Shown: positions 1-58,777 of the stretch, one piece after another | How the letters are laid out: the number at the start of each line of letters is the position of its first letter | Position numbering within the stretch: position 1 is the first letter of the stretch | DNA from: a virus | Taxonomy: Duplodnaviria > Caudoviricetes | Virus record (IMG/VR): IMGVR_UViG_3300029286_001711 | Length of the DNA stretch: 64,000 nucleotides | Direction: 5' to 3' (one strand) | Program-made: the position numbers and the translations under genes | Notes under the pieces: model-generated | What the model was told of the DNA's origin: nothing | Database searches by the model: none | Seen by the model: the letters and a program-made list of their open reading frames with translations, nothing else

Positions 1-1502
1 ATGGAACCCATAAATTCAGTGATTTTGGTTGTCAAAACATCAACGCCGGGTTTAAGATATTCCTGTAAAGCTTGTAACAAAGGCCATGTTGCCATCATTA
101 ACTGATCTAACACACCCTGCCACTGTTGTCTCATACTAACAGCATCCTTCTGACTTTTATCAGCTAATTTTCTTTTTTCCATTAAAACTTCAGCATCACC
201 CTTAGTAAGTTCAGACAGTTTTTTTATGTTAGCAGTACCATCTTTATTAAACCCTACTTGAATTGTACCGTCAGCATCAGCTAACCCACTTAACATATCT
301 ATCTGTTCTTGATCTAATCCCTTACCTTTTAATAAACCCTCAAACATGTTTATTTTAGCACCCTGTTTAGCTGTTTTCACTAACTCTTCATAACTAATAC
401 CTAAAGCGGCACCAGCTTCTTTTAACCTATCTAATTCATAGGCGTTAACCTTCCACTCACCCGTGGTTTTATCAAAAGTTGCTGAGGCTGTCGCAGCCTT
501 AGTTAAACTTTTAGCCAACTCCTCTGGTGAATTACGTGCTTTATACATTAATTGGAATGGGTCACCTAATGAGGATAACGAACCACCTAAGACTTGTAAT
601 TGGGCCGCGGCCTCAATAGCACCCTCGGGTCTGAATACTTTATCAGCTACCGCTGCCACAGAATTCATATCTAATTTATATTTCTCAGAATATTTGGACA
701 TTGCCATCATTCCTTTAACACCGTTCTTAAAGTTTAATTTATTCATTAAACCTAAATTTGATTGAAAACTTTTAAGTACCTTGGCTGAGTTAACACCTAT
801 TGATTCAGCATCAGAAGAAAGTTGTGTTACCAACTCAACAGACTTTGTCGCTCCCAAACCAAACGCCTCCATTTGAGCTGCCATTTGAGAAATACCATCA
901 ACACCCAAACCAGTTTTGGTTCCTAGTATAGCCATATTCTCAAGGGCTTGTTCACTTAATATAACGGAACGACCTAATTCGTCAGAATAAGAACCTTGTG
1001 CCTCAGCTAGAGCTGTAGCAGATACACCCCACGCAGCGGTTTTCATTCCGGCATTAATGATGTTGGTTTGCATGACACTCATCCTTTGACCAGATATACC
1101 CATGGTATTAGCTGTTTTACGAACAGCCTCATCAAAATCAAACCACTTAGTTAAAATATTACCTACTACACCTAAAAACTGTTTGTCTAAAATGTTAGCG
1201 CTAGCTTTAAGTAGGGAACCTTGTTTCCTTAATTCTTTATTAACTTCTAATAGTTGGTCGTATTCTTTTCTTAAAACCTTAGCCTTTTTTAACGACTCCT
1301 TTGTACCCTCTTTTTCTAATTCGAGGATTTCTGCTTGCATTGTTTTAAGTTCTTTCCATATCTTACCAATCTTTGCTTGCCATTCAGCATATGATTGTAT
1401 GGAGTCTACCTGACTCTTAAAGTTCTCCTTAATGTCTTGTTGAATTTTGAGAAACTCTATTTCGTCCTTTTTGTTTCTTTTAAAGTTACCTTCGTTCGCC
1501 AT
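1..1502 (-). CDS. Tape measure-like protein (5' part; runs off window start)
   Basis: Not in ORF track. ATG at 1502-1500 overlaps the upstream stop (TAATG). Frame checked open at the window edge: MANEGNFKRNKKDEIEFLKIQQ...; helical, Ala/Leu/Lys/Gln-rich; downstream of the tail chaperone gene. Confidence 0.7.
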   Translation of the reverse strand, partial: MANEGNFKRNKKDEIEFLKIQQDIKENFKSQVDSIQSYAEWQAKIGKIWKELKTMQAEILELEKEGTKESLKKAKVLRKEYDQLLEVNKELRKQGSLLKASANILDKQFLGVVGNILTKWFDFDEAVRKTANTMGISGQRMSVMQTNIINAGMKTAAWGVSATALAEAQGSYSDELGRSVILSEQALENMAILGTKTGLGVDGISQMAAQMEAFGLGATKSVELVTQLSSDAESIGVNSAKVLKSFQSNLGLMNKLNFKNGVKGMMAMSKYSEKYKLDMNSVAAVADKVFRPEGAIEAAAQLQVLGGSLSSLGDPFQLMYKARNSPEELAKSLTKAATASATFDKTTGEWKVNAYELDRLKEAGAALGISYEELVKTAKQGAKINMFEGLLKGKGLDQEQIDMLSGLADADGTIQVGFNKDGTANIKKLSELTKGDAEVLMEKRKLADKSQKDAVSMRQQWQGVLDQLMMATWPLLQALQEYLKPGVDVLTTKITEFMGS

Positions 1503-3373
1503 TATCTATTTTTTAGTATTAAGACCCCTTCAAAAGGTTCTTGTGGATAACCCAAAGCTTTCTTACCTATTAAAACATCAATAGGTTTAGAAGAGGTCCA
1601 ATTAATTAGACCACCATCTTTTGGTTTTACCATTAAAAACCCATCACCAGATCCTGATTTTTTGATAATGATAGAAAAGTTTTCACCTTTATCACCACTC
1701 ATACTTTTTCTAATCTCTAGGTTTTGATCACCCTGATTAAATAAATTTATTATTTCTTTTACGTTTAAATCGGAAGGGGTATCAGATTTTTCAACATCAT
1801 ATAACCTACCAATAACTGGGTAAAATTTCTTATCCTCCATTGAGGTATTGGTTAACGGCTTACCTTGTTCACCCCCTTTACCCCCACCGCCATAAGTGGT
1901 CTCAATATCACCATCTTTTTTAGCTTTACCCTTTGGACCTAAAACTATACCCTTTAAATATATTTTTGCTGTTGTATTAGATTTTTTTTGATCTTCGTCA
2001 GCTTCAAATATTAACTCTGTATTATCTGATATGTAACGATAAAAATCTTCTGCCACTCCAGTATTTGACATTGACGCCTTTGGCATGTTTTTTACTTTCA
2101 CATTCTTACCACTATTTTGTTTCCCATTACCTTTAATCATTTCGGATAGTTTTGAAAAACTAACTAAAAAGTTTTTAAAACTTCCTACTAATTTTTTCCA
2201 AAGTTGTTTTCTTGTTTGTACATCGGCAATACTAGTTTTACCCTTAGTAGCTATAAAGTATAGTTGTTTATAGAAATCTTTAATAACTTGAAAAGTTTGT
2301 GAGTTTCTACCATTTTTTGCTACCTTAGCGAAAATAGAAAAAACATCGAACATAAAATTCTGTAGGTTTAGTTTAACCTTTAAATATTTTCTTTGATTAC
2401 CAGACATTGAAGTTGGTGCTTCTAATAACCCTTGTGATTTTAAACCCTTTAAGGCTGTTAAAAGTGGTTGTTGATTTATTTTAATAGATTTTGTCCCATC
2501 AATAATAGCATCTAAAAAAATCTTTTGGAATTCTGGGTCGTCTTTGTACGCTGTTAATATGTTAAACCAACGAGCTTTATCTTTCGTACTGGAAAGCTTA
2601 GCGTTAACCTCCTTTAAATCTTTTCCGTTATAAAAATTACCTTCCTTTTCATTCTGAGTAGAATTATTATCTTCTCCACCTTTTTTAATATTTTTTCTAT
2701 TAACGATAACGGTACCACCCTTACCATCACCTATCGTAAAATTATCACCGTCTATTTTAGTAATACCACCTTTACCGTTCTCTCCACCATCAGTTGTAAA
2801 ATCAACCGTATCACCCACTTTGTATTCCTCACCCTCTGTTTCTAAATCACCACTTTTTATTGTGGTAACAAAAGAAGGACCAAACTCTACCGTATAAAAT
2901 TTACCCTCACTTTCACCCACAGCTAAAGCAATTATTTTTTTCTTGGTACCTGGTAATACAGTATAGACCTCATTACTTTCAGTAAATTTTATTAAAAAAG
3001 TTGATTCACTATTTTGTGGTTTGAATTCTAAAATTAAATTATTAGAATCTTTAACAACCCTAGCTAATCCAGTAAATGTTTGTGATTTTGGTAGTGTTAG
3101 TTCCTCTGGGTTATCTAATAAATCCTGTAAAACGTAACTTAATTTAAAAGGTTCAACAGATAATTGTTGTATTGAAAAAATAGTGTCTAGTTCTGGTAAA
3201 TTAACACCCATACGAGCCATTATTTCTTTAGCTCTTCCAGCGGCCATCTCACCTCTAGCTCCAGATGCTGCAGCCTCATCACCAGTAACTGAAGTTGGTT
3301 TAGCTTCAGTCATGATATATTCTAACAGTATCTTGTCTGATGTGACTTTTTTAATTAAGGTATTAATGCTCAT
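1502..3373 (-). CDS. Hypothetical virion/internal protein, 623 aa
   Basis: Long ORF with own late-type promoter. N-terminus has a ..KILLE|YIMTE|A leader-like motif; Gly-rich KOW/SH3-like segment (YKVGDTVDFTTDGG). Confidence 0.8.
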   Translation of the reverse strand: MSINTLIKKVTSDKILLEYIMTEAKPTSVTGDEAAASGARGEMAAGRAKEIMARMGVNLPELDTIFSIQQLSVEPFKLSYVLQDLLDNPEELTLPKSQTFTGLARVVKDSNNLILEFKPQNSESTFLIKFTESNEVYTVLPGTKKKIIALAVGESEGKFYTVEFGPSFVTTIKSGDLETEGEEYKVGDTVDFTTDGGENGKGGITKIDGDNFTIGDGKGGTVIVNRKNIKKGGEDNNSTQNEKEGNFYNGKDLKEVNAKLSSTKDKARWFNILTAYKDDPEFQKIFLDAIIDGTKSIKINQQPLLTALKGLKSQGLLEAPTSMSGNQRKYLKVKLNLQNFMFDVFSIFAKVAKNGRNSQTFQVIKDFYKQLYFIATKGKTSIADVQTRKQLWKKLVGSFKNFLVSFSKLSEMIKGNGKQNSGKNVKVKNMPKASMSNTGVAEDFYRYISDNTELIFEADEDQKKSNTTAKIYLKGIVLGPKGKAKKDGDIETTYGGGGKGGEQGKPLTNTSMEDKKFYPVIGRLYDVEKSDTPSDLNVKEIINLFNQGDQNLEIRKSMSGDKGENFSIIIKKSGSGDGFLMVKPKDGGLINWTSSKPIDVLIGKKALGYPQEPFEGVLILKNR

Positions 3374-3407
3374 AATGATTTCTTTATAAATATCACTTAA
3401 ATTAAAA

Positions 3408-4545: not shown

Positions 4546-5565
4546 ATGAAAATGACAGAAGATAAACTTAATCGTTTAAAAGAAGTGCTTTCAGTTCCTA
4601 CTTATTCTAGGGATGAAGCACTCATGATTGAGTATTTGAGAAAGACGTTAACAGAAAAAGGGTATGAACCGACCGTTGACGAGTGGGGGAATGTTTATGT
4701 GACGAAAGGTACCGCAGAATGGTATCCTTGTTTTATTGCACACACAGACACAGTACATAAGGTGAATGAAAACTTAGTTATCATTCAGGAAGAAAAGAAT
4801 GGTGAAACTATTCTTAGAGGTATCGATAAAACGAACAACATGCCATCAGGATGTGGTGGTGATGATAAATGTGGTGTGTACTTATGTCTTGAAATGTTAG
4901 ACACATTACCAAACGTTAAAATAGCTTTATTTGTTTCGGAAGAAATTGGTTGTAAGGGTAGTCAATACGCTGACCCAGAGTTCTTCAAGAATGTTGGTTA
5001 TGTAATTCAATACGATTCTCCTGAAGGGGATTCAATGAGTTTAACATTAATGGGTAGATACTTGTTCAACCAAAAATCAGAATTTTCTGATAAGGTTTCT
5101 GGTTTAATCAGAGAACATGGTATTACAAATTGGGCTTATCACCCTTATACCGATGTTTGGCAAATATTTGAGAAATTTAACATCGCATGTTTGAATTTAG
5201 CAGCTGGTTATTACAGAATGCATTCTGACAATGAATATGTAAAAGTTGATGATGTTCAAAACGGTTATGAACTTGGTTTGAAATTACTTGAACAACTAGG
5301 TGAAAACAGATACGAAAACCCAAAAGAAGAAAGAACATATTCTTGGAATGGTGGTTACGGTACTGGTAGTTATAAAAAGACCCAAAAACCCGATACTGGT
5401 GGTCAAAAACTTCTTACTGAAGGTAAGGAGAAAGATGGTGATGAAAAAGAATATGATGATTGGGCCGACCTTTTTAATAGTGGTGAGTATCTATATACAA
5501 ACCGTGATAAGGGTGGATCTTCTTATTATGGTCGTCACTGGGATGAAGACAGATTTAATTGGTAA
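4546..5565 (+). CDS. Zinc metallopeptidase, M28/M20/M42 clan
   Basis: Metal ligands AHTDTVH, GGDDKCG, SEEIGCKGS, YYRMHSDNEY; acidic low-complexity C-terminal tail. Confidence 0.85.
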   Translation: MKMTEDKLNRLKEVLSVPTYSRDEALMIEYLRKTLTEKGYEPTVDEWGNVYVTKGTAEWYPCFIAHTDTVHKVNENLVIIQEEKNGETILRGIDKTNNMPSGCGGDDKCGVYLCLEMLDTLPNVKIALFVSEEIGCKGSQYADPEFFKNVGYVIQYDSPEGDSMSLTLMGRYLFNQKSEFSDKVSGLIREHGITNWAYHPYTDVWQIFEKFNIACLNLAAGYYRMHSDNEYVKVDDVQNGYELGLKLLEQLGENRYENPKEERTYSWNGGYGTGSYKKTQKPDTGGQKLLTEGKEKDGDEKEYDDWADLFNSGEYLYTNRDKGGSSYYGRHWDEDRFNW

Positions 5566-5597: not shown

Positions 5598-6236
5598 TTA
5601 TTCATTACTACTTCTTTTATACTCGGCAAATTCATCATCGTGTTTTTTGATTGTTTTACCAACAACACCACCTGCGGCAGCTGCCGCAACAACCCAAATT
5701 AAAGGTATTAAATAAGTTTTAGGGTCTTCAAGGTTACCACCACCAGTCATTACACCAGCACTAAATAAAGAACCAAGAACAGTCCCGAGAGTACCACCTA
5801 TACCAGCACCACTCAATGGTGTAACTTTACTGCCCATTAAATAATCGTTTTTATCTTCTTTCTTTTCAACCTCTGAATCGGAAGATTCGATATCACCTTT
5901 ATATGTTGGTAATGGTTTATCTTCAACTTCATTAACTGAATAACCTTCTGAAATAGAATCTACAGCTGGTTTTACAATGGAATCAATAGATTCACCATGT
6001 TTTATTGCTTTTACTGACTGAACTAAAACCTCTTTTGGTACACCCATTGAGATTAATTCTTTGATGGCTTTTTTAAGGGTTTCTGGGTCTGACGCTAAAT
6101 CTTTAGCGATATCTTGTACTTCTTTATTTTGTGATAAAGAATAATCCTCTTTTAATAATCCCTTAGATTTTAAGTAAGAATTTTCCACCCTTTGATTGGC
6201 TTCCATAATTACTTTTAATTTATCTTGTTTTCTCAT
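5598..6236 (-). CDS. Hypothetical protein with C-terminal hydrophobic hairpin
   Basis: 212 aa; N-terminal ...KGLLKE| motif; two Gly/Ala-rich hydrophobic segments near the C-terminus; late-type motif at 6249-6256. Confidence 0.75.
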   Translation of the reverse strand: MRKQDKLKVIMEANQRVENSYLKSKGLLKEDYSLSQNKEVQDIAKDLASDPETLKKAIKELISMGVPKEVLVQSVKAIKHGESIDSIVKPAVDSISEGYSVNEVEDKPLPTYKGDIESSDSEVEKKEDKNDYLMGSKVTPLSGAGIGGTLGTVLGSLFSAGVMTGGGNLEDPKTYLIPLIWVVAAAAAGGVVGKTIKKHDDEFAEYKRSSNE

Positions 6237-6257
6237 TGTGGTTTTATTTATAAATAG

Positions 6258-7631
6258 TTATAACATTTGATATGTTAGGTATAATCCTGGAAAGTAAGCT
6301 GCGATTTCACGTCTCTTAGTCCAATGGTCAATGTTTTCTAAATGTTCGTATTGTTGACCCCAAAGATAATCATAGGGTAAACTTTGTGAGTATTCTATTA
6401 ATTTTTTACCAATACCTAACCCTTTATACTCTGGGTCAATACCTAAAGCCACGCCCTCAACACCATCTAAATTTTGGAATTCCATTGGATTAACCTTAAT
6501 TGAACCTGGGTTTTTTTCTTCACATTCTTCTGGCGAGTAACAATTATAATCTCTTTGCATATAGTGTAACATATAATCAGCAATTTGATTTTCAGCTAAA
6601 AAATAAAATCCAACCACCTTACCTTGATAAGTTGCTTTAACAGATATATCCCAATCGGTGGCCTCAGAAAGGTATTTTATTAATGCCTTTGGTGTCATTT
6701 GACCCTCAAAAACCTTCAAACCAACTCTTAAGGCGTCAAGAATCTCATCTTCATCTTCAAAATTAGATATTTCTATTCCTTCAGAATATGTTTTTTTATC
6801 TTCTGGAAATTCTATTTCTAATTGGTTTGGATCACCATCAACCTCTTCCTCCTCATCACTAACATAATCATCACCATCTTTTAACCAACTAACAAATTCT
6901 TCTGCAAATTGTTCAATAGATAAATCCGTTACATCAACCTCATTTGAAAATTCTTGTACTTCAGCGACATTTGCTGTAACCCCATGAACAGATTGTAGTT
7001 CATGAATAAAATAACTAATATCCTCGTCAGTCCAATCCTCCCACCATTCTTTTTCGGTGGTTTCAGATTCTTCTGTCATAAAATCTTCTCTCTCATCTTC
7101 TGGAAACTCTTCATCTTCTATATCATCATCTGGATATATATCTTCATTGGCATTTGTTATTTCATAATAAAAATATTCACGTATTTTGTCTCTACCAGAG
7201 AACCAAATCTCATCAAATCCATCAATTTCATAAAGTAATCTACCCAACCAAGGATCGTTTACCATAAGTGTATCATGGTCATAATCAACAACAATAATCC
7301 AATGTGGTGTTCCTTGAACGTTTGCTCTAACAACACAAGGGTGTCCTTTGTCGATAGAGTCTTTAAGTGATTGATAAGGATCTTCTTCACTCATATGTTC
7401 AATATATTCAATACCCATGTATTTAAGACCTTTGACCATTCTATCAGGAGGTGTTCCAACAACCCAATCAGTACCACAAGCACGACATATATCAGATATT
7501 TTAAACCTGTTACCAACAAAAAAATCGTGAACCATCTTTAAACAAGTCGGACCACAACTATTTCCTGTTGGTTGATAGTGATGTGGGACTTGTATTTCGG
7601 ATAATATTTTTTTAATTCTACTCCTCACCAC
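6258..7631 (-). CDS. C39-like cysteine peptidase - acidic linker - GNAT acetyltransferase fusion
   Basis: QPTGNSCGPTCL (Gln, Cys), PHWIIVVDYD (His), VNDPW (Asp); C-terminal VALGIDPEYKGLGIGKKLIEY acetyl-CoA motif A; GTG start. Confidence 0.75.
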   Translation of the reverse strand: MVRSRIKKILSEIQVPHHYQPTGNSCGPTCLKMVHDFFVGNRFKISDICRACGTDWVVGTPPDRMVKGLKYMGIEYIEHMSEEDPYQSLKDSIDKGHPCVVRANVQGTPHWIIVVDYDHDTLMVNDPWLGRLLYEIDGFDEIWFSGRDKIREYFYYEITNANEDIYPDDDIEDEEFPEDEREDFMTEESETTEKEWWEDWTDEDISYFIHELQSVHGVTANVAEVQEFSNEVDVTDLSIEQFAEEFVSWLKDGDDYVSDEEEEVDGDPNQLEIEFPEDKKTYSEGIEISNFEDEDEILDALRVGLKVFEGQMTPKALIKYLSEATDWDISVKATYQGKVVGFYFLAENQIADYMLHYMQRDYNCYSPEECEEKNPGSIKVNPMEFQNLDGVEGVALGIDPEYKGLGIGKKLIEYSQSLPYDYLWGQQYEHLENIDHWTKRREIAAYFPGLYLTYQML

Positions 7632-8064
7632 TTATAATTTGATTGCGTAATTCTTCAATTGTTGAATTTAGTTCATCTATTTGACTTTTTAGGTCATCAA
7701 TTTCTTCCTGCCTTTCTTCCCTACCCTCTTCACGTGCTGTATCTTCTCTATCAGAAACCACATCTTCATATACATAATCGTCACAACATCCATCACAACT
7801 ATAGTCGTAATTATCTTGCGCGTAAGTGTATGTATTATCAGCTTGTTGATATACGTATTCCCCAATTTCTTTTAATTTTTCTAAATCGTGGACACCAGCA
7901 CCAATCAACATTTGATAAAGTCCCTCACCCCCAAAGTCATAATCATGGTCAGCTTTTATGAAATCTTTTTTAATCTCTTTTTCGGCAATATGAACATCAA
8001 GATCCTTAACCCATTCAAAATGGTCTTCCTGTTCTTTTAATATTTTCTTAATTAAATCTCTCAT
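7618..8064 (-). CDS. Leader-bearing acidic protein, paralogue A
   Basis: MRDLIKKILKEQEDHFEW; CDGCCDD motif; C-terminal coiled coil. Confidence 0.8.
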   Translation of the reverse strand: MRDLIKKILKEQEDHFEWVKDLDVHIAEKEIKKDFIKADHDYDFGGEGLYQMLIGAGVHDLEKLKEIGEYVYQQADNTYTYAQDNYDYSCDGCCDDYVYEDVVSDREDTAREEGREERQEEIDDLKSQIDELNSTIEELRNQIISGEE

Positions 8065-8075
8065 TAACCTTCTTA

Positions 8076-8567
8076 TTAATTTAAATCATCGTTACTACCA
8101 GCTAATCTAGCCTGTAATTCTTCAATTTGTTCTTCTAATTCCTCAATTTTATCTTGCATTTCAGATTTTCCTGCTTCATAACCCGTCTCTTGACCCTCCT
8201 CATAACCTTCTTCACGAGCCTCTTTTTCTTTTTCTCTCACATCATCGATATAATACATGTCATCACAACAATAATCACAACCACAGTCATTTTGTCCACT
8301 ATCATATCCACTATCATAAGCTCTATAATAAGAACGACTAAATTCCTTTTTAATTTCCCTACCGATTTCAGTTAAATCTTCTGGTCTTGTGATACCCTTT
8401 TCTATTAATAAAGGTACCATTTCACTTACAAAATCGGTACTATATTCGTAATCCATATCTCTAAAAGGTTGTATAACAAGTTTTTCAGCCTCACTAGGGT
8501 TTATATCTTTCACCCAGTCAAACTCGTTTTCTTGTTCCTTTAATATCTTACGGATTAAGTTTTTCAT
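8076..8567 (-). CDS. Leader-bearing acidic protein, paralogue B
   Basis: Start revised to ATG 8567 (MKNLIRKILKEQENEFDW), 5 nt after the late motif; CGCDYCCDD; GxxxG repeats; coiled coil. Confidence 0.8.
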   Translation of the reverse strand: MKNLIRKILKEQENEFDWVKDINPSEAEKLVIQPFRDMDYEYSTDFVSEMVPLLIEKGITRPEDLTEIGREIKKEFSRSYYRAYDSGYDSGQNDCGCDYCCDDMYYIDDVREKEKEAREEGYEEGQETGYEAGKSEMQDKIEELEEQIEELQARLAGSNDDLN

Positions 8568-8595
8568 TTCTTTATAAATATCGATGGAATCATAA

Positions 8596-9134: not shown

Positions 9135-9201
9135 AGTAATGTCTTTTTGTTTAAGTTGTTATCTTTTTATTATAAATATGCTCTATTTTATTTTTAGCAG
9201 A

Positions 9202-9254: not shown

Positions 9255-9959
9255 ATGTTAAACGAATTCGAAAAATTTGCAATTAAAGACCAAGGGGTTG
9301 GTTCTAACACGTTGCACGCTTACCAAAACTTTATGTCAGAGGTTCCTGTGACAATCCAAGGTAGTATGACTCCCTATGTCTTGGAAGAAAGAGAAATGAG
9401 AGCAACACAAATTGATATCTTTTCTAGATTGATGATGGATAGAATCCTATGGGTTGCTGGTCCAGTAAATGATAGAATGTCTACGGTTGTACAGGCACAA
9501 CTTTTATTCTTAGACCAACAAGACCATAAGAAAACCATTACGATGCATATAGACTCACCTGGTGGGTCTGTGAAGTCAGGTTTGAGTATTGTTGATGTAA
9601 TGGAATACATCAAAGCCCCAATCGCCACCATTAATACTGGTATGGCGGCATCAATGGGTTCAGTTTTATTGGGAGCTGGAACAAAAGGTATGAGAAGTTC
9701 CTTAAGATTCTCAAAAACAATGTTACACCAATCAAGTGGTGGAGCAATGGGTAATATCCAAGACGCCCGTATCACAATGAAAGAATGGGAAAAAACCAAT
9801 GAAATTCTTTTTGAATTATTGGGTGGTTATTGTGGTAAAACTCGTGAACAAGTTGCTGACGATGCTTCACGTGATTTATGGTTATCAGCAGACGACGCTT
9901 TAGCGTATGGAATTATTGATGAAGTTATTAAACCTTTACAAAAAACAATTAAAAAATAA
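9255..9959 (+). CDS. clpP: ATP-dependent Clp protease proteolytic subunit
   Basis: DIFSRLMMDRIL, IDSPGGSV, GMAASMGS (catalytic Ser), TMLHQ (His), RDLWLSADDALAYGIID. Confidence 0.95.
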   Translation: MLNEFEKFAIKDQGVGSNTLHAYQNFMSEVPVTIQGSMTPYVLEEREMRATQIDIFSRLMMDRILWVAGPVNDRMSTVVQAQLLFLDQQDHKKTITMHIDSPGGSVKSGLSIVDVMEYIKAPIATINTGMAASMGSVLLGAGTKGMRSSLRFSKTMLHQSSGGAMGNIQDARITMKEWEKTNEILFELLGGYCGKTREQVADDASRDLWLSADDALAYGIIDEVIKPLQKTIKK

Positions 9960-10497: not shown

Positions 10498-11124
10498 TTA
10501 TCCACCTACTACTCCACCTGGTCCACCAAGTTTAGAACCTAGACGTTTAAATTCTTTTTCTTCATCGTTCCATTCAGCGTTTTTACCGTTACCAGCAAGG
10601 ATAGGAAGACCAGCGTTAGCTTTCATAAATTTCATAACAGCGTTTTTGAAATCTTGAACATCACCGTTAGCATATGCTTTTGACATCTTTTCAGCGTTTT
10701 TAACATAAACTTGGTTCCAAGCTTGTTCAGCTTTCTTTTGGTCCCATCTGTGACCCATCCATTTCATAAGTTTGTCCCACATTTCACCAACACCCTCGTT
10801 CATTAATTCTTTGCTATAGTGTTCTCTAACCATTTTGGCTTTGTTTGAATGGGTTGCTTTAGCTGAAGACATATGTTTTTTTGCGTCAGCTGCTTGAGGT
10901 AATTTCTTTTGAAGTTTTCCTGCCGCAGGAACCCCTTCACCTTTTTCTACCATCTTACCTGACATCTTATTTTTAATGTGTTTTTTTGCCTCAGCACCTT
11001 GTGAAGGGATGTGGTTCTTAACTGGAGCCTTCTTATTGTTAATTGAAGCTGCCTCCATAACAAAGTTCTCAACTACTCTTTCAAGTTGTTCTTTGTTGAT
11101 TCTATATCTTTTTACAGTTGCCAT
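10498..11124 (-). CDS. Basic hypothetical protein, probable head-internal
   Basis: Leader-like N-terminus (..NFVME|A); internal repeat PSQGAEAKKH / PQAADAKKH. Confidence 0.75.
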   Translation of the reverse strand: MATVKRYRINKEQLERVVENFVMEAASINNKKAPVKNHIPSQGAEAKKHIKNKMSGKMVEKGEGVPAAGKLQKKLPQAADAKKHMSSAKATHSNKAKMVREHYSKELMNEGVGEMWDKLMKWMGHRWDQKKAEQAWNQVYVKNAEKMSKAYANGDVQDFKNAVMKFMKANAGLPILAGNGKNAEWNDEEKEFKRLGSKLGGPGGVVGG

Positions 11125-11131
11125 TTTTGTT

Positions 11132-11320
11132 TTAGTATTTGTATTTGAAGTTAGTAAGCTTATTAAATTGAGCTAATTCTTTCTTAAAATCTTCAGTAAG
11201 AACTTCAGCTTTAACCTTTGATTCTGTAACAACCTTTTTTTTAGGAGTTTCAATGCCTGCCTTTTTAAGGGTACTTTCAATAAGTACATCAAGGTCTTTC
11301 TTTTTAACAATTTTTGACAT
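11132..11320 (-). CDS. Small prohead-core-like protein
   Basis: 62 aa with several (L/V)xE motifs (LIES, VTES, LTED); late motif at 11335-11342. Confidence 0.7.
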   Translation of the reverse strand: MSKIVKKKDLDVLIESTLKKAGIETPKKKVVTESKVKAEVLTEDFKKELAQFNKLTNFKYKY

Positions 11321-11355
11321 GTTTTTTGTTTTTATATAAATATGTTTATATTAGT

Positions 11356-11394: not shown

Positions 11395-14164
11395 TTAGAT
11401 ATTATCAAATGATGCTCCAGTTGTAGTTACGTTGAACTCGATAATAATGAATTCTAATGATGGGATAGGTTTTAAGAAAATCTTACCTCTCATTTCATTT
11501 CTATCGATTTCTTCTGGGTCGTTAGATAATTGTACCCTAAAGTCTGCTAAACCTCTTTCTTTTCTGATATTATCCAAGATTGGGTTTACTAAGTTCAAGA
11601 ATTGATTTCTAACGATTTGGTCATTTTGTTCGAATAACAATCTAACACCAACTGCTGTAATTAATTTACGAGCTTGTAATAATAATCTTCTGATATTTAA
11701 TCTGTCAAGAACAGAATCTTTAACCTGTAAGTTTTTATTACCCCAAATTACAACACCCACATCTGAGAAAGTTGCCATTGGATTAACACGTCCTTCATAT
11801 AAAGTATCTCTATCATCTTCAGTTAATTTAATTCTAGCTTGAATAGCGTTTGTAAGACCTCTATTGTAACCAGCTACTGCGTACCAAGGGAAAGCGACAT
11901 TATCGGTTAATGCAATATTCTTACAAACTTCTAATGTTGGTGGTAACCAAATGTTAACAGTATTTTCAGTGTCTCTTTTCTTGTACCCAAGGCCAGTATG
12001 TGGCTGTGTAGTTAGAATCAATATCCGCTGCGTCTAATAAATTAACAAGTGCATCTGCCGTATCAATTGATACAGAATTAAATCCAATACCCACTAATTG
12101 GTCAGCGGTATCATAAGTAACATTCTCAGGAGAAGTTACAATATAAACTGAGTCAGCTCTTTCTTCTTCGATTAAATCGATTGTTTCTTGAACAAGATAG
12201 TTGTTATCAGTATAGTCAATCCCAGGAGATGCGAACACGTTAATGTTAACCGCTTCAGGGTTTTTAAATGTATTGATAGCGTTCCAATAAGCGTATAAAT
12301 CGGATGTACCGTCTTGTGGCCCTAATTGGATAAATTGTCCTTGTGCTACACCAGTTGTGAAACCAACTTTACCAACTCTATATCTATCAGTATTAGTCCT
12401 ACTTCTTCTGTAACAATCCCAACCATCAAATCCAAGATACGGAACGAAAGTGAATTTTCTTGCTGAAATACTTTCATAATCAGTACCTTCGATACCCACA
12501 CCATCTCTGAATTGGTAAAGACCACATTCAAAATTACCAGCTACAGTAGCTCCACTATCCATGTGGAAACCTTTAGTTGTTGCTGTCCAATAGTTATCAC
12601 CGTTCGTTAAACCTTTCCAGTTAAACATATCTTCGTCGATACCTAAAGTATCAGTAATACCAAGGTATACCTTTTTAATTCTTTCATTCTCAGGGAAGTA
12701 TTGAATCTTATAGTCAATCATCGGAGCTAATGCAGTACCGTTAGTACCTACATAATTACTTACGATATAACCTTCAAAACCAGCTGTGAAAGCGTCAATT
12801 GGTGCGTTAGCGTTCATAACCAACATTACGAATCTACTGTTTAATACGTTTTCTCCATCAGCGGTACCGATTCTTCTTGCAACATAGTTGTTTGAAGATG
12901 GGTCCATGTTACACTTAGGGTAACTTTCGAGGATAGACGGTCTTGCGTCAGTATCATTCCATTGTCTAATAATAATATCAAACTCTTTTGTATCTGGCTT
13001 AATATTTTGAATAGAGATTTTTATTTCTTGATTTGCTGATGAACCATCAGAAATTGAAATAAATTTAAATAATTTAACAACAACATTACCTCGTAATTCA
13101 GATACAACCCAAGGTGTTTCTGGTGTTTGATATTGTTGTTTATAGTTACTATTATATGGTATATAAATTAAATCTTCTTTTAAACCCATAATGTAACCGT
13201 TATCAATTAAATCTTGTGTGTTGTTAGTATAAATTTCATCAACATAAACTAAACTACCTCTATCGTGACAATCAACACCTAATACTCCAGGTATGTAATT
13301 TCTACTTGTTTTATCAAGAGATACATCATATGTGAAAGTACTACCAGTTAAACCTACTGAGGATGCTGATAATACAAATTGTCCTAAAGGATTTGTTAAT
13401 GCTCCTGTCATATTAGCAACTAAACCATTAATCGATTGGTCTGTACTCCAATTTAGGATATCACTAATATATCTACCTCTAGATCTTAAAACCGCTAATA
13501 CCATACCTTCATATGCTGTATAAGCACTTGCAATGTAAGTTGTAACAGTACCAGAAATAGTACCACTTAATCCAGATAAATTTGAAAGAAGTACCGTTGC
13601 TGAAACACCAGTAAATGAACCAGCTTGTTTACTGAAAACAATACCTTGTGGGTATGTTACCGAAACACCTGGTACGTTAGCTGTTGTTAATGTTGGACCA
13701 TTAGGAAATAAACCTAATGTGTATAAATATTGTGCGTTAATATTTGTGATATTCGCGTAAGTACTACCAGTAAAATCAGCAGTAAATAAGGTTGTAACAC
13801 CAGTAATAATTGTTGTTGGGTCGTAACCAGCTTCAGAAACTACTGCCCAAGCATCACCAGCGTCAAAACCAGTTAATCCTAGAGTTCTAGTTACGAATAA
13901 TTGATTTGATTCGGTTAAATAACTTTTTGCAATATAAGATGTCTCATATTTTGGTTTACCGTTATCAAATTTTTCTGGATTTAAACCACCGAAAATTGTT
14001 AAATATTCATTATAATTTGTAATGAATATTGGTTCGAAAGCTGGTCCTTTGACAGTCTCACCTGCGAGACCCAATGTAGTTACACCAACTTGTTGTGCTA
14101 CAAAGGTTAAATCTTTTTCTGATGTAAATACACCTGGTGATACAAATACTTTTTGTGAAGCCAT
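11395..14164 (-). CDS. gp18: Tail sheath protein (T4 gp18-like), split by a single-base frame break at ~11976-11979
   Basis: N-terminus SPGVFTSEKDLT; C-terminal part WYAVAGYNRG, RVNPMATF, VIWGNKNLQ, LDRLNIRRLL, EQND. Removing one A joins YWPWVQ-E-RDTEN into ~922 aa. Confidence 0.9.
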
Positions 14165-14260
14165 TATTGTTTTTATTTTTTAAAGAGTTATTTTCTTTTT
14201 ATTATAAATATTAGCTTCTTTTTCAAAAGTTTTTTAAAGTAAAGAATAAATCTGTATTAG

Positions 14261-30204: not shown

Positions 30205-30870
30205 ATGAGTATGGATCCTAAATTAATGGAAATTTTAAAGAAAGCTAAACAGATAGATAAGGCTGCTGAGAAATTCGATGGGAGTGCCCCTAAAAAATCA
30301 AATTCAAGAGGTTTAATGGACCAAATTAGTGGTGACCAATTAATTACCGCTGAAGAAATGGCACACAGTGGTGGTAGAATGATGGAATCATCAGTAACTA
30401 ACATAAAAAAGGATATTGGTAATCCATCATATAATTCCGATGTTAAAAATTCCAAATTGCCACCAGCAATAAAAAGAGCAATGTTGGAAAATCCGATACC
30501 ACAAGGTGATATTAATTACGGAACTGGTGTGGATGAAGAAGCGATTAGACAAATAAGAGGTTCTGATAGTATATCTGAAACTAATCGTCCTTATTATAAT
30601 GAAGAAGATGAAACTGACATGTATGATAAACCTGTTAGAAGAACTGAAACAAAAAAGAAAGTTATAAGAGAACAGATTAGTCAACCTATTGATATTGACG
30701 AATCTTATATTAGAAAATTAATAGCATCTGAAATAACTAAAGCCCTACCTAAAATTATTGAACACTATTTTGATAGTCGTTTAGTTAAAGAAAATGTACA
30801 ATTTAAAGCTGGTAGTACCACCTTTTCTGGTACGGTAATGCCAATGCCAAAAGTAAAAGGAAAAGGATAA
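30205..30870 (+). CDS. Hypothetical protein
   Basis: 221-aa ORF, mixed-charge, with several xxE motifs. Confidence 0.75.
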   Translation: MSMDPKLMEILKKAKQIDKAAEKFDGSAPKKSNSRGLMDQISGDQLITAEEMAHSGGRMMESSVTNIKKDIGNPSYNSDVKNSKLPPAIKRAMLENPIPQGDINYGTGVDEEAIRQIRGSDSISETNRPYYNEEDETDMYDKPVRRTETKKKVIREQISQPIDIDESYIRKLIASEITKALPKIIEHYFDSRLVKENVQFKAGSTTFSGTVMPMPKVKGKG

Positions 30871-30892
30871 TTCTAAATTAAAAAAACTAATC

Positions 30893-30949
30893 ATGGAAAA
30901 AGGTTGTGGATGTAAAGGTAAAAAAGGTACACCGAAAGGAAAAAGTTAA
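30893..30949 (+). CDS. 18-aa basic microprotein MEKGCGCKGKKGTPKGKS
   Basis: Not in ORF track; A-rich leader, ATG, TAA, then a terminator. Confidence 0.55.
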   Translation: MEKGCGCKGKKGTPKGKS

Positions 30950-30973
30950 TTAAAAACCCTTTACAAAAAGTAT

Positions 30974-31003
30974 AAAAACCGTCATTTTTATGTGACGGTT
31001 TTT
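30974..31003 (+). terminator. Terminator
   Basis: AAAAACCGTCA-N8-TGACGGTTTTT followed by more T. Confidence 0.85.
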
Positions 31004-31033
31004 TTATTTACAACAAATCGTCTTAAAAAATAT

Positions 31034-32350
31034 ATGAGCCAAATTAAAGTTTTAGTAATCCCTTCGGATCGTAGTGGTGTTTCGATGTTTAGATCAGTTG
31101 ACCCACATTTAAAATTACAAGAATTATACCCTAAAGAATTTTTTGTTGATATCGTAACAGCAGGAACTGACACTCTTAATTGGGATGATGATAGCTACTT
31201 AAAGCAATTTAATATAGTACATTTCCATAGAGCTGTTAACACCGTTGTCAATGGACAATTACAACCTGTTTACGGTGATGCTGCGAAGCATATCTTTGAT
31301 AAGCTTAAAAAAATGGGTATCACAACAATTATGGATATTGATGATTATTGGATGCCAACTCCCGATCACCCAGCCTACATGTTATTAAAACAGTCTAAGG
31401 TTGACGAATTAATCAAATCTAATATTAGAATTGTTGATTGGGTTATGACCACAACTGAAGTTTTTGCTAATGAAATTAGAAAGCTTAATAAAAATGTGAT
31501 TGTTGTACCTAACGCTATTGACCCTTCACAGGAACAATTCCAGTGTAAAGATGTTAAGAGTGATAAATTTAGAATTGGTTGGTTAGGTGGTTCTTCTCAC
31601 TTACATGATTTAGGTTTGATAAAACAAGGCTTAAATATTTGGATGAACGGTGAGGGTAAAAATGATACACAATTAGTACTTTGTGGTTTTGACTTAAGAG
31701 GTAATATTACAGAGACAAATCAACAAACTGGTGAGCAAAGAACCAGAAAGATTTTACCTATTGAAAGTGTTTGGTGTCGTTACGAAGAAATGTTCACCAA
31801 TAATTATGGTATACTTTCTCCAGAATATAAAAAACATCTTTTATCGTATAATCAAGATAATGATAAAGCTTACAACGATTCTAACGAACCATACCGTAGA
31901 GTTTGGACCAAACCCATTACCACTTACGCATCTAACTATAATATGTTTGATATTTCCTTAGCGCCAATTAAAGAACATATTTTTAACAAGTGTAAATCAC
32001 AACTTAAGGTTATTGAGGCTGGATTCCATAAAAAAGCGTTAATTGCACAGAATTATGGACCTTACACTATTGATTTAGTCAACGTAATTGAGTATGGTGG
32101 TAAAATAAATGAGAATGGTAACGCCATCCTTATTAACTCAGTTACAAACCATAAAGATTGGTTAAAAGCGATTAAGTTTTTACATAACAATCCAGATATG
32201 ATTAAGAAAATGGGTGAAAATTTATATAATACAGTTAACAGTAGATATCATATCGATGTTGTTACTAAGAATAGAGCTGAATTTTATAAGTCACTCGCTA
32301 ACGAGAAAAAAGAAGAAACAAAAGAAATTGTTGAACAATTAAGTAATTAA
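31034..32350 (+). CDS. GT-B (GT4-like) glycosyltransferase
   Basis: Start revised to 31034; DIDDYW, VVPNAID, RIGWLGGSSHLHDL, KSQLKVIEAG. Confidence 0.8.
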   Translation: MSQIKVLVIPSDRSGVSMFRSVDPHLKLQELYPKEFFVDIVTAGTDTLNWDDDSYLKQFNIVHFHRAVNTVVNGQLQPVYGDAAKHIFDKLKKMGITTIMDIDDYWMPTPDHPAYMLLKQSKVDELIKSNIRIVDWVMTTTEVFANEIRKLNKNVIVVPNAIDPSQEQFQCKDVKSDKFRIGWLGGSSHLHDLGLIKQGLNIWMNGEGKNDTQLVLCGFDLRGNITETNQQTGEQRTRKILPIESVWCRYEEMFTNNYGILSPEYKKHLLSYNQDNDKAYNDSNEPYRRVWTKPITTYASNYNMFDISLAPIKEHIFNKCKSQLKVIEAGFHKKALIAQNYGPYTIDLVNVIEYGGKINENGNAILINSVTNHKDWLKAIKFLHNNPDMIKKMGENLYNTVNSRYHIDVVTKNRAEFYKSLANEKKEETKEIVEQLSN

Positions 32351-33997: not shown

Positions 33998-34489
33998 ATG
34001 TCAGTAGTTGCGGTAAAAGTAGAGAAAAATAAAATCACCATAGGTGCTGATAGTATCTTAGTTTCTGGGTATACCCAAGAAAAAGATAAATTAGCTAAAT
34101 TATTCCAAAATGAATGGATGGTGGTAGGAGATGTTGGGCAAGCCCAAGAAGGTGCTTTATTTCAAATATTCTCACAAACTAGAAAACCAAGAGAATCTTC
34201 GGTTTATGCTATGACTGAATACATGTTTGAGTTTTATTCTTGGATACGTGAAAAAACTGAAGCAACTGAGTTACATAACAGTTATATCATCATCTTCCAA
34301 GATAAAGTATTTTTGATTGAGGGTTTCTTTGTGAAAGAGGTTAGTGATTACGCGGCTATTGGAGCTGGAATGGATTTCGCGTTAGCGGCATTATATCTGG
34401 GTTCAAGTGTGAATGATGCTATTAAAACATCATGTCATCTATCGATTTTATGTGAAGAACCAATTAATATTATAGAAATTAAAAAATAA
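33998..34489 (+). CDS. HslV/proteasome-beta-like Ntn hydrolase
   Basis: (M)SVVAV...IGADS, AAIGAGMDFALAAL; Ser at position 1 after Met removal. Confidence 0.65.
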   Translation: MSVVAVKVEKNKITIGADSILVSGYTQEKDKLAKLFQNEWMVVGDVGQAQEGALFQIFSQTRKPRESSVYAMTEYMFEFYSWIREKTEATELHNSYIIIFQDKVFLIEGFFVKEVSDYAAIGAGMDFALAALYLGSSVNDAIKTSCHLSILCEEPINIIEIKK

Positions 34490-34498
34490 AAATAAAAA

Positions 34499-34675
34499 AT
34501 GGAAAATTTATACGATTATTACTTCCACTACAACAACTATACAGGTGAGTGGAATGCCTTTTCAAGAGAAGAATGTTACATGGGTGGTACCAAAACAAAA
34601 AAGAAAATCTATACCAATAGAGACCTAAATAAATTAATCGACGAGATTAAGAATTTAGAGTTTCAATTAGTATGA
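34499..34675 (+). CDS. Small hypothetical protein, 58 aa
   Basis: Not in ORF track; MENLYDYYFHYNNYTGEWNAF...; ATGA overlap with the next gene. Confidence 0.65.
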   Translation: MENLYDYYFHYNNYTGEWNAFSREECYMGGTKTKKKIYTNRDLNKLIDEIKNLEFQLV

Positions 34676-36273
34676 TTAGTATAGTTTACTCTACCCGCAG
34701 TATTAATAAACAATTTCAAGAACACATCAAGAAAACTATTGGTGTAAAAGATTATGAGATTGTTGAAATCATCAATAACGGAGATAAGTCTTTAACTGAG
34801 TGTTACAACTACGGTTTAGATAATACAAAAAACAAAATTGTAGTATTTTGTCATGACGATATTATTCTAAAAGAAGGGTGGGGTAAGAAAGTTATCAAAC
34901 ATTTCAATAACACCGATTATGGTGTTATTGGTATGGCTGGTACCACTGATATGTCCGAAATTGGTCGTTGGTGGCAGGATTCAACTAAAATGGTTGGAAT
35001 TGTTTCACATACTAATGAAGGTAAGACCTGGGAGAATAAGTACTCCAACAACTTTAGTGATGAAATTATTGAGACCGTCATGTTAGATGGTCTATTTTTT
35101 GTTGCCCATAAAGATAGAATTAAAAATAGGTTTGACGAGTCCTTCAAAGGATTCCATTTCTACGATGTAGATTTCACTTTTAACAACCATTTGAGTGGAG
35201 TTAAGGTTGGTGTTATGTTTGATATTAAAATCACCCATAAATCAATGGGGGCAACTAATGACGAGTGGGAAAAAAATCGTGAACAATTTATTGAAAAATA
35301 TAAAGAAAAATTACCACACAATATTAAACCAGAACTAAGGTTTGAGACTAAATCAAAAAACCTTAAAGAAGGGCCTAAACTTGGGATTATAATTCCGACT
35401 AAAGGTAATGTTCAAATGTTAAAGGATTGCATCAATTCAATCTATAAACAAGGTGGTTATCCTGGCACTAGAATAACAATTTATGTAGCTGATACAGGTT
35501 CTACCCCAGAAGAGAAAAAAGAAATCGAACAGTTCTGCTCAAGTCAAAAATTCCTTTCAGATAGACATGGTGATGCAAGATTTATTGAATACGATTTCTA
35601 TAATTTCGCTGTTATCAATAATGATGTAGTTGAAAACCACATCGAAAAAGATACTGAAGTTTTACTATTTTGTAATAATGACATTAAACTTGTTAATAAC
35701 GCAATCGAACGTATGATTGATGTTTATAATAAGAACAAGAAAAATGTTGGTACTATAGGTGCACGTCTTCATTATGGGGATAACACGGTACAACATTCTG
35801 GTATTGTTATGTTTGTTAGACAAGATGCGGGTATTGGTGTTACACACCATGGTTTAAGATCTTATCATACATACCATGATTGTTTAATCAGAAATGTTTT
35901 TGGTAATACTGGTGCATTCTTGATGATTAATAAAAAACTGTTCGATGAAATTGGTGGTTTTAATACGAATTATAGAGAATGTTTTGAAGATGTTGAATTA
36001 AATGTTCAATGTATAAATCGTCATAGAGAAAATATTTTTGTTGGTGATGCTGTTTGTTATCACTATGAAAGTCAGACAAGAAATAAGAGTGAAGAAAAGC
36101 TTAAACGTGAATCGGAAGACTACACAAAAAAGTTAATCCCATTTATATTGAACAATAAAAGAACATATAATTACTTCACAAACATTAAAGCAAGAGATTT
36201 CGAAGCTTTAATGGAAAGAAGTAAACTTTTAAAACAGGGAGATATAGATAATGCGTTTAGGAATTTCGTATAA
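34672..36273 (+). CDS. Two-domain GT2-like glycosyltransferase
   Basis: VFCHDD (domain 1); IIIPTK, LLFCNND, TGAFLMI, FEDVEL (domain 2). Confidence 0.85.
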   Translation: MISIVYSTRSINKQFQEHIKKTIGVKDYEIVEIINNGDKSLTECYNYGLDNTKNKIVVFCHDDIILKEGWGKKVIKHFNNTDYGVIGMAGTTDMSEIGRWWQDSTKMVGIVSHTNEGKTWENKYSNNFSDEIIETVMLDGLFFVAHKDRIKNRFDESFKGFHFYDVDFTFNNHLSGVKVGVMFDIKITHKSMGATNDEWEKNREQFIEKYKEKLPHNIKPELRFETKSKNLKEGPKLGIIIPTKGNVQMLKDCINSIYKQGGYPGTRITIYVADTGSTPEEKKEIEQFCSSQKFLSDRHGDARFIEYDFYNFAVINNDVVENHIEKDTEVLLFCNNDIKLVNNAIERMIDVYNKNKKNVGTIGARLHYGDNTVQHSGIVMFVRQDAGIGVTHHGLRSYHTYHDCLIRNVFGNTGAFLMINKKLFDEIGGFNTNYRECFEDVELNVQCINRHRENIFVGDAVCYHYESQTRNKSEEKLKRESEDYTKKLIPFILNNKRTYNYFTNIKARDFEALMERSKLLKQGDIDNAFRNFV

Positions 36274-45736: not shown

Positions 45737-46356
45737 TGGAAACTATAACAATATTAATACCCACGTACAACAACGCATCTAAAATTGGTAGGTGTATTGA
45801 CTCAGCATTAAATCAAACCTATAAGGACATTAAAATCGTCGTATTGAATGATGGTTCTACTGATAACACTAAAGAGATTGTTGAAGGTTACCTAAAAAAT
45901 CATAATAATATTTTTTATTATGAAAACGACGGTAATAAAGGGCGTGGATATTCAAGAAATAGAATACTAGAGTTATCAGATACAAGGTTGTCCTGTTGGT
46001 TAGATTCGGATGATTATATGGATTTGGATAAAATTAAACAACAATACGAGTATTTTTTAAAAAACGAAAATTGTAATTTTTTGGCAACACCAATGATGTG
46101 TTTATTACCAGAAAATAAAACGATACCAGGTTATTCTGGCTATGATTTTATTAAAAATGTGACTTTATTAAATTTAAGAATGATAAACCACATACCACAC
46201 CCTACTGTTATGTTTAAAACACAAATAGCTAAAGATTTGAAATTTAACCCAAATATGAATAGAGAAGAGGATTGGGATTTTTATATTAGATTATATGAGA
46301 ATGGTTATAAAGTAGACGTGATACCAAATTTACTATATTTTTATAACATGTGTTAA
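45736..46356 (+). CDS. GT2 glycosyltransferase
   Basis: ILIPTYN, VLNDGSTD, WLDSDD, EEDWDFY. Confidence 0.9.
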   Translation: METITILIPTYNNASKIGRCIDSALNQTYKDIKIVVLNDGSTDNTKEIVEGYLKNHNNIFYYENDGNKGRGYSRNRILELSDTRLSCWLDSDDYMDLDKIKQQYEYFLKNENCNFLATPMMCLLPENKTIPGYSGYDFIKNVTLLNLRMINHIPHPTVMFKTQIAKDLKFNPNMNREEDWDFYIRLYENGYKVDVIPNLLYFYNMC

Positions 46357-47287
46357 TGGAAAAAATCATTCTAATTACTGGTGGTTCTGGCCTAGTGGGT
46401 ACAGCACTCAAAAAATTTATACCTAATGCAATTTACGTAGATTCTAAAGAATATGATTTAAGGAAAGAATCTGATGTAATCAAAATGTTTGAAACTATAA
46501 AACCAAATATTGTTATACATTAGCGGCCAAAGTTGGTGGTATATTAGACAATGTTGAAAGACCAGCTGAGTATTTTATCGATAATATATTGATGAATAGT
46601 TTAATGGTTAAATACTCACATCTTTATAACGTAGAAAGATTTTTAACTATGTTAAGTAGTTGTATTTATCCTGACGTTATTGAACATTACCCTCTACAAG
46701 AAAAAGATTTACACACTGGACCACCAACGGAATCTAATTTCTCATACGGTTACGCTAAAAGATGTTTAGCTGTGTTAATAGATTCCTATAATAAACAATA
46801 TGGTACAAAATATAATTACATAACACCGTGTAACCTATACGGTATTGGTGATAAGGATGATGAGAAAAAAAGTCACTTTGTAACTTCATTAGTAAAGAAG
46901 ATATATGAGGCAAATAAAAATAATAATGACCATATTATTCTATATGGTGATGGTACTCCATTAAGACAGTTTATGTATTCTGAAGATTTAGCATACGTAA
47001 TAAATCAAATGTTAGAAAAAAACATATACGATAATTTTAATATAACTACAAATGAAAATTGTAGTATTTCAGAAATCGCTAATATAGCTTTAGAAGCTTG
47101 TGATTCTAAACATCTTAAAATTATTTACGATAAAACAAAACCAAACGGGCAATTCAGAAAAGACATTTCTAATGAGAAATTAAAATCTTTACTTCCCGAC
47201 TTCAAACCTACATCTTTAAGTAGTGGTATAAAAAAAGTTTACAAAAATTATTTATTAAATGATAAAATTAGTCAGCGACACAATTAA
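46356..47287 (+). CDS. fcl: GDP-L-fucose/colitose synthase (Fcl/ColC-like), interrupted by a 1-nt deletion at ~46520
   Basis: N-terminal ITGGSGLVG...VIH* (46356-46523, missed by track); adding one T gives HLAAKVGG and a 310-aa protein with SSCIYP, YGYAK, GDGTPLRQF. Confidence 0.8.
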
Positions 47288-58754: not shown

Positions 58755-58777
58755 GTGAAATTCTTTTATTATAAATA

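Follow-up and report, generated by a model that had tools for sequence, protein, structure and literature searches.

A modular N-terminal leader ending in a T4-type protease motif on diverse late proteins of uncultured T4-like phages

The prohead protease of phage T4, gp21, cleaves after L/I-X-E, and cleavage is lost when the Glu is changed to Asp (PMC9026906). The internal proteins of T4, as well as Alt and gp24, carry N-terminal propeptides of 10-20 residues that target them to the prohead core, and within the tag of IPIII, residues 4 and 7 serve targeting while residues 8 and 10 serve processing (PMC9026906, PMC5694885, PMC3012670). T-even internal proteins are diverse, and only the tag is common to them (PMC9026906, PMC5694885, PMC3012670). 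Here I consider a set of short basic N-terminal leaders on late proteins encoded by a 64,000-nucleotide (nt) stretch of DNA, IMG/VR virus record IMGVR_UViG_3300029286_001711 (the window), which is a piece of an AT-rich (about 32% GC), distant T4-like myophage. The leaders are modular N-terminal elements specific to phages, they replace one another on one cargo family, and they end in the motif of the T4 protease. I propose that they probably form a system of the same kind as the T4 capsid-targeting sequence (CTS), greatly expanded.

The likeness to the CTS of IPI, IPII and IPIII and to the propeptides of Alt and gp24 is that of a short N-terminal tag on unrelated, fast-evolving late proteins, with an L/I-X-E end and hydrophobic residues spaced as in an amphipathic helix. 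It extends to a gp21-family (S77) protease and to a scaffold and a major capsid protein (MCP) of the gp22/gp23 type. The tag sequence, however, is by eye unrelated to that of T4; the relation is one of functional analogy within homologous head-assembly machinery. The scale also differs. Where T4 tags three to four proteins, each genome here has tens of tagged genes, and the protein clusters number more than 1,500. The window alone has at least three leader families, and relatives have five or more. Multi-domain enzyme cargo, an acidic element (DFxW) and copies of leader ends at internal junctions likewise set the present case apart, and it is known from sequence alone.

A second precedent comes from phiKZ, 201phi2-1 and SPN3US, where many head-internal proteins, ejection proteins included, have propeptides cut after the Glu of a three-residue motif by gp175/gp245, diverged gp21 homologues (PMC5694885, PMC9026906). 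Propeptides of these giant phages have multiple sites, and paralogues keep conserved N-termini on diverged bodies, as here (PMC5694885, PMC9026906). Most are longer than 100 residues, however, and end in S/A/G-X-E, whereas the present leaders have 11-22 residues and a hydrophobic P3 as in T4. The phage itself is T4-like, not phiKZ-like. Then there are the cargo-loading peptides of encapsulins, which are short and portable and suffice to send unrelated enzymes into an HK97-fold shell. These too are short terminal peptides on unrelated cargo, but unlike the leaders described here they usually sit at the C-terminus, attach directly to the inside of the shell and stay on, with no protease or scaffold. 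Literature searches for the motif strings and for expanded CTS systems found no description of either.

Three relatives allow the window to be compared: L001, an IMG/VR contig found with an exact 41-mer of the window end and 96% identical over 918 nt; G001 (226 kb), with an MCP 76% identical to that of the window; and G004 (295 kb, 98% complete), with an MCP 60% identical. The type A leader has 11 amino acids (aa), M[KR]x[LI]I[KR]KIL[KS]E, and the type B leader has 22, MKK[IV][IV]RL[TN]E..[LI]xR[LI]V[KR][KR][VI][IL]xE. The leader-bearing genes of the window are as follows.

8076-8567, minus strand: Cys-cluster protein at the operon head, with type A leader MKNLIRKILKE (nt 8535-8567), then an acidic EFDW element (nt 8496-8534); cargo with a CxxCC-DD cluster and a C-terminal coiled coil.
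7618-8064, minus strand: paralogue of 8076-8567 (the two are 40% identical over 86 aa); leader of type A, MRDLIKKILKE (nt 8032-8064), then EDHFEW.
6258-7631, minus strand: C39-GNAT protein, with type A leader MRSRIKKILSE (nt 7596-7628) given a start at the second GTG, 7628; the 11-residue spacing then fits exactly.
60850-61287, minus strand: leader of type A, MRDLIKKILKE (nt 61255-61287), then a Zn-ribbon module, the junction LKE-SEENDFDW (nt 61114-61146) and a last module at the C-terminus; located immediately downstream of the MCP gene.
58299-58754, minus strand: low-complexity charged protein with type B leader MKKVIRLNENDIERLVKKIIKE (nt 58689-58754); homologue at G001 34262-34690.
5598-6236, minus strand: protein with a third leader type, MRKQDKLKVIME followed by A (nt 6201-6236); N-terminus kept in G001 34690-35082; two-segment hydrophobic hairpin at the end (residues 144-197).
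10498-11124, minus strand: diverged type B leader, RINKEQLERVVENFVME followed by A (nt 11053-11124); leader kept in G001 83023-83622, cargo diverged.
11132-11320, minus strand: 62-aa protein with a weaker candidate leader, N-terminus MSKIVKKKDLDVLIE followed by S; conserved in the syntenic G001 82457-83011.

The leaders of the last three genes are supported by comparison: the first 15-25 residues are kept in G001 while the remainder has diverged. As to cargo, 60850-61287 has only the leader in common with the paralogues 7618-8064 and 8076-8567. The C-terminus of 5598-6236, with Gly/Ala-rich hydrophobic segments at residues 144-164 and 173-197 and then a charged tail, has the look of a membrane hairpin and is reminiscent of holins or membrane-inserting ejection proteins.

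It is too much to ask of chance that such leaders should recur where they do. A loose seven-residue regular expression for the leader core matches five times within the first 40 residues of the 77 window proteins and not once in 17,668 internal residues (Fisher p = 7e-5). Pooling the window with G001 and G004 gives 30 N-terminal matches against 11 internal ones (odds ratio 14.8, p = 3e-16), and several of those 11 are true internal copies or mis-called starts. Shuffled window N-termini give a mean of 0.11 matches. Chance or compositional bias is excluded, shuffled N-termini yielding 0.1-0.5 matches per genome against the 5-15 observed. The leader observation is real, far beyond chance. Strong leaders also occur solely in minus-strand units that run the same way as the head and tail genes, where they begin 5 of 19 genes, against 0 of 58 others (p = 6e-4). 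The plus-strand genes, replication and metabolic genes included, have no strong leader; the initial annotation of this DNA had named an equal frequency of the motif among early or replication genes as an outcome that would count against it.

That annotation had pointed to ten leader genes and read them as a means of loading effectors into the head. All ten starts are genuine starts of open reading frames (ORFs); five genes bear strong leaders and three more are upheld by the comparison with G001. The other two find no support. Gene 1502-3373 (..KILLE) has no partner family, and the WYL protein (29820), which lies in a plus-strand block adjoining the DNA polymerase gene, shows only ordinary ortholog conservation. 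For 5598-6236 the segment originally chosen, KGLLKE, was the wrong one, the conserved piece being the earlier MRKQDKLKVIME followed by A. The cargo proteins, described as unrelated, are mostly so, apart from the two paralogues listed above.

The leaders reach well beyond this phage, to contigs from freshwater and marine samples whose host is probably an aquatic member of the Bacteroidota. Type A was searched for in IMG/VR with a degenerate DNA pattern, and all counts are of the matches listed. It occurs at no fewer than 118 loci (at least 118), in 150 ORFs, nearly always at the true ORF start and often in tandem arrays. Among 103 non-redundant full-length ORFs, 93 have cargo without a Pfam match, and the remainder (Fe/Mn superoxide dismutase, GP88, L5 gp82, LRR and a weak Acb1) are mutually unrelated. 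The DNA pattern for type B constrained residues 1-12 only and left 13-22 free. It was found at 117 or more viral contig loci, in 131 distinct ORFs, and the free positions are nonetheless conserved: [IL]15 in 98%, [VI]16 in 100%, [ILV]20 in 99% and E22 in 92%, with position 21 variable. Conservation ends immediately past E22, in keeping with the L/I-X-E rule of gp21 (PMC9026906). When proteins were searched with only the leader region counting towards the score, 1,505 clusters (size range 90-287 aa) matched the type B leader, every one of them a metagenomic hypothetical protein. By comparison, 596 Gb of prokaryotic genomes hold the type B DNA pattern in just two contigs of metagenome-assembled genomes, each about 3 kb, and the tags are therefore phage-specific. 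Searches of cultured phages by tblastn, with a 25-aa leader and a full type B protein as queries, gave no matches.

An unbiased BLAST clustering of N-termini from the window, G001 and G004 produces a super-family of 61 genes that joins types A and B and brings in further leader types from G004: MKIIITESQ.., ..ISEEEKNRILxMH and MNLQENIxRIKEMMGLxE. Every leader family terminates in hydrophobic-x-Glu. The genes that carry the leaders are little conserved between relatives; T-even internal-protein loci are likewise poorly conserved (PMC3012670).

The strongest case for a detachable tag is made by the C39-GNAT protein (6258-7628), which has 81 homologues, all metagenomic. Their conserved core starts at ..HIYQPTGNSCG. 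Upstream of it, 15 homologues have the type A leader and 25 a leader of the '..ENINRIRQVMGLNE' (..RIRxxMGLNE) family, while the rest have leaders of other families or none, so that this one cargo family bears at least three different leader families. Whatever the leader, hydrophobic-x-Glu stands 5-8 residues ahead of the core in 68 of 76 homologues. The five with short N-termini that lack the motif, the leaderless homologues, lack that Glu as well. The same x-Glu position under different leaders means that the leaders are interchangeable add-ons, their only common feature being a helix that ends in the protease motif. An AlphaFold2 model (mean pLDDT 83) agrees in its outline: residues 2-11 are predicted as a detached helix of very low confidence and residues 12-24 as coil, past which come confident C39, helical and GNAT domains. 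Foldseek places the first beside the double-glycine peptidase domains of PCAT1 and ComA (TM 0.74-0.87), and also returns N-terminal acetyltransferases. The layout is a double-glycine peptidase fold, a helical and acidic linker, and a GNAT domain most like Ard1/Naa, which suggests, as far as models can, an enzyme that may cut and then acetylate the new N-terminus. One leaderless C39-family homologue, L269:8191-10900, lies in a 79-kb phage-like contig, where its neighbours are a PolyA_pol/CCA-type enzyme, an RF-1-like gene, a tRNA-synthetase fragment and an ART-PolyVal domain gene.

If the leaders are cut in the head, then a suitable protease should be encoded nearby, and the proteins it matures should carry sites like the leader ends. 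Two head genes stand at the end of the window.

61358-63094, minus strand: T4 gp23-type MCP, about 40% identical to its best matches in cultured phages; candidate maturation sites LLYE50 and LINE60 (nt 62915-62953).
63124-64000, minus strand: C-terminal part of an acidic scaffold protein whose gene runs past the window end; enriched in hydrophobic-x-Glu, with sites kept across relatives (IKE/S, PIKE/S, the slash marking the candidate cut).

Past the window edge, L001 has the full scaffold, a SprT-like gene, a Peptidase_S77 protease gene and a PolyA_pol/CCA-type enzyme. The initial annotation expected a prohead protease gene near the scaffold gene, and in L001 the Peptidase_S77 gene adjoins it. 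The gene is of the T4 gp21 type (Pfam E = 1e-28; PHROG 'head maturation protease', E = 2e-41); its position lies beyond the window, and it is seen in L001 and other relatives, not in the window DNA itself. Among large leader-bearing contigs, 8 of 10 have an S77 protease, including all six that are at least 82% complete. In the MCP, LINE was correctly placed near residue 60: it occupies residues 57-60 and is followed by S61. The mature N-terminus of T4 gp23* aligns near residue 51, just after LLYE50, and LINE lies 10 residues beyond LLYE. Both are kept in G001 and G004, and past LINE the sequence is variable. In the scaffolds, hydrophobic-x-Glu has a density of 3.4-4.5 per 100 residues versus 1.8-2.0 in the proteomes, and several sites common to all four sequences, MVKE/S, [IL]KE/S and P[IV][KT]E/S, resemble leader ends. 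Small MCP-fragment-like ORFs occur apart from the real MCP gene at L144:12635-15095 and L146:5533-6154 (G001 152.6-155.1 kb and 185.5-186.2 kb), and they include copies of the N-terminal propeptide with a ..QLINE/ site.

The proposed scheme is then as follows. A short amphipathic basic helix would dock a late-made protein onto the prohead core during head assembly. A gp21-type (Peptidase_S77) prohead protease would cut after the hydrophobic-x-Glu that ends the leader, and the same protease might cut hydrophobic-x-Glu at internal module junctions. The trimmed cargo would remain in the head beside the DNA. I infer docking, cleavage and retention in the virion from the sequence relations given above; that the cargo is injected with the DNA and acts as effectors is the most speculative part of the scheme.

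What this scheme did not anticipate is the acidic element. The initial annotation noticed E-x-F-(D/E)-W in three leader proteins, and there are exactly three, each copy directly after LKE; the one in 60850-61287 is internal, at YLKE-SEENDFDW, past the Zn-ribbon. Over all loci, the consensus of this DFxW element is hydrophobic-x-E, 0-6 mostly acidic residues, then [DE]-F-[DEG]-W-[VAI]-x-[DE]-[IV]-x-P. Among the matches listed, 39 copies come directly after N-terminal leaders and 13 are at internal junctions, among them those in window gene 60850-61287, in G001 30691-31335 and 84997-85941, and in L021, L064 and L117. The internal copies are mostly without the basic helix. This fits an arrangement in which there would be one docking helix per precursor and one cut site per module, and together the extra element and its junction copies suggest polyprotein-like processing. 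As far as sequence can tell, what is new here is the C39-GNAT family under several leader families and the DFxW element at internal module junctions.

A bolder view, which I hold tentatively and would not call probable, is that an uncultured T4-like jumbo clade uses a two-part loading code. Swappable, removable docking helices (A, B, C and others) would bring a protein into the prohead, and a retained acidic DFxW, in every case next to a hydrophobic-x-Glu cut site, would mark module boundaries. Single proteins and polyproteins of shuffled modules would be cut there into separate cargo units, so that each phage could inject tens of proteins and the clade as a whole thousands.

An alternative to removal altogether is that the leaders are never cut and serve permanently as helices for docking or assembly, binding a partner common to them from phage or host, a membrane or each other, and that the terminal Glu is simply part of the helix. 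The helices are indeed strongly amphipathic, a property that counts equally for the docking tag proposed above: type A and the type B core score 0.75-0.88, against 0.73 for the 95th percentile of shuffles, with lower values for MRSRIKKILSE (0.46) and MRKQDKLKVIME (0.27). The adjacent DFxW looks like a short linear motif that is retained, and it is not obvious why a capsid should contain the enzyme-like cargo. But a helix kept for its own sake does not explain why three or four, if not more, unrelated leader families agree only in a terminal hydrophobic-x-Glu with a variable middle residue, and why conservation stops there. Nor does it explain internal junctions that keep x-E and DFxW, usually without the basic helix, or leaders on genes of the head module. 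Of the alternatives it survives best, and is still unlikely.

The genes of the head module bear on a second alternative, that the tags are cut by the head protease from proteins that are no delivered cargo but transient components of the prohead core, fillers, or zymogens kept inactive until assembly. G001 has two genes between its protease and scaffold genes, one starting with a type B and the other with a type A-like leader, and in alignment the leader of the latter falls on ..KIVKEGRINE/, a segment inside its homologue in L001. Leader genes lie directly downstream of the MCP gene both in the window and in G001. Genes between protease and scaffold are positioned as are those of the T4 core proteins gp67 and gp68 (PMC9026906), and many of the cargoes are small, charged and of low complexity (e.g. 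58299-58754 and 10498-11124). Against this, folded enzymes such as C39-GNAT (with its confident model) and superoxide dismutase, the extreme diversity of the cargo and its rapid turnover fit the payload of an arms race better. T4 has both core or filler proteins and delivered internal proteins. I regard this alternative as quite unlikely.

It is also conceivable that what spreads is not a peptide but DNA, a cassette of promoter and start, disseminated by recombination or tuning the initiation of translation, with the leader as a by-product. A promoter-like box does stand ahead of many of these genes.

8574-8581, minus strand: promoter-like box ATATTTAT at the head of the operon that runs from 8567 to 5598.
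61295-61302, 58771-58778, 11336-11343 and 3386-3393: further copies of the box, at leader genes.
14204-14211 and 9172-9179: further copies at tail genes (sheath and tube, respectively).

The TATTTAT box precedes leader operons, sheath, tube and four baseplate/tail operon heads, and is absent ahead of DNA polymerase, ClpP, M20, PhoH and dUTPase. The end of the box is separated from the ATG by 4-9 nt in type A genes and by 4-6 or 12-19 nt in type B genes; lying so close, the box, if it is a -10-like element, would make the mRNAs leaderless or nearly so. This proximity favors a cassette, as do the tandem arrays and the codon at position 8 of type A, which is ATA in 87% of cases versus 35% genome-wide. 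The remaining codons, however, vary synonymously much as the genome does, and the exchanges between K and R and among I, L and V are conservative. About half of the type A genes have no box, leader-like segments occur inside ORFs where neither promoter nor start is needed, and different leader families converge on one peptide ending. A DNA cassette is very improbable.

Least likely of all is that the leaders are N-terminal degrons by which the phage ClpP (9255-9959), with an unfoldase of the host, would set when late proteins are removed. ClpX signals of the N-terminal 'Met-basic-hydrophobic' type are known, and ClpP is a core gene beside the leader cluster, but its co-occurrence is uninformative because all three genomes have it, and a degron leaves the terminal Glu, the junction copies, the match to MCP and scaffold sites and the leaders of the head module unexplained. 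The ClpP gene (9255-9959, plus strand; 64-74% identity among window, G001 and G004) and another core gene of the same three, that for an M20/M42 peptidase (window 4546-5565, plus strand; 40-68% identity), lie among the tail genes on the strand opposite to the leader operon.

Targeting to the capsid, then, is the reading I prefer, and several observations weigh against it. Some of the tagged cargo resembles ordinary cytoplasmic enzymes: the CCA-adding/PolyA_pol-type and SprT-like proteins of L001, and superoxide dismutase. A conserved DFxW would stay on the mature protein, and a tag that is removed gives no reason for it. The motif hydrophobic-x-Glu is short and turns up often in proteomes rich in Lys, Glu and Ile (about 2 per 100 residues). 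Genome-wide, the association between box and leader is modest (odds ratio 2.9, p = 0.008). Flavobacterium immuto and Microcystis Mel-JY01, the closest T4-like phages in culture that have an S77 protease, show no type A pattern. Two further results speak neither for nor against the reading: a gp24-like vertex paralogue, a possible bearer of a leader, was not found in G001 or G004, and a complex predicted between the first 60 residues of 8076-8567 and the L001 scaffold scored 0.00, with poorly folded chains. Even so, predictions of T4-type capsid loading at the level of sequence came out as expected: an S77 protease gene beside the scaffold gene in L001, several unrelated leader families with a hydrophobic-x-Glu end, the same motif at conserved MCP and scaffold sites, leaders on small genes in the head module of G001, and no strong leader among the plus-strand genes. 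The box common to leader, sheath, tube and baseplate operons may point to late expression together with the head genes, given the modest association just mentioned. What does not carry over from the initial annotation is the word effectors, which is speculation, along with two of its ten examples, and the DFxW element and its junction copies lie outside what it explains.

The window also holds genes for tail sheath, tube, baseplate, DNA polymerase, ClpP and the M20/M42 peptidase, as well as a large cluster for sugar modification. Two genes appear to be split. Residues 1-738 of the G001 sheath correspond to ORF 11966-14164 and residues 736-930 to ORF 11395-12021 (sheath gene 11395-14164, minus strand); the frame change, near 11966-12021 and next to an A-rich run, may reflect an error in sequencing, a pseudogene or a programmed frameshift. 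A gene resembling NAD-dependent epimerases/reductases (46350-47287, plus strand) consists of a 57-aa N-terminal ORF with a GGSGLVG Rossmann start, a gap of about 65 nt and a remainder of 232 aa.

Should the capsid reading fail, the tags would remain a signal at the N-terminus, specific to phages and very widespread, that is undescribed and calls for explanation. If the leaders are T4-like, then they offer a handle, from sequence only, by which to list the capsid-packed proteins of a large group of uncultured aquatic phages. The list would be a candidate catalogue of first-strike proteins for anti-defence and host takeover, nearly all without known function. The natural swaps of leaders on one cargo family would supply ready-made tags for packaging foreign proteins. 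And should the more doubtful two-part code prove true, the cargo would include a C39-Nat-like acetyltransferase fusion, tRNA CCA-adding/repair enzymes, a SprT protease and a superoxide dismutase, a phage counterpart to the effector secretion repertoires of bacteria. On the T4-like reading, the internal-protein strategy, known from three or four proteins, could be extended to a genome with dozens of swappable cargoes, served by several tag families side by side and perhaps by the processing of polyproteins.

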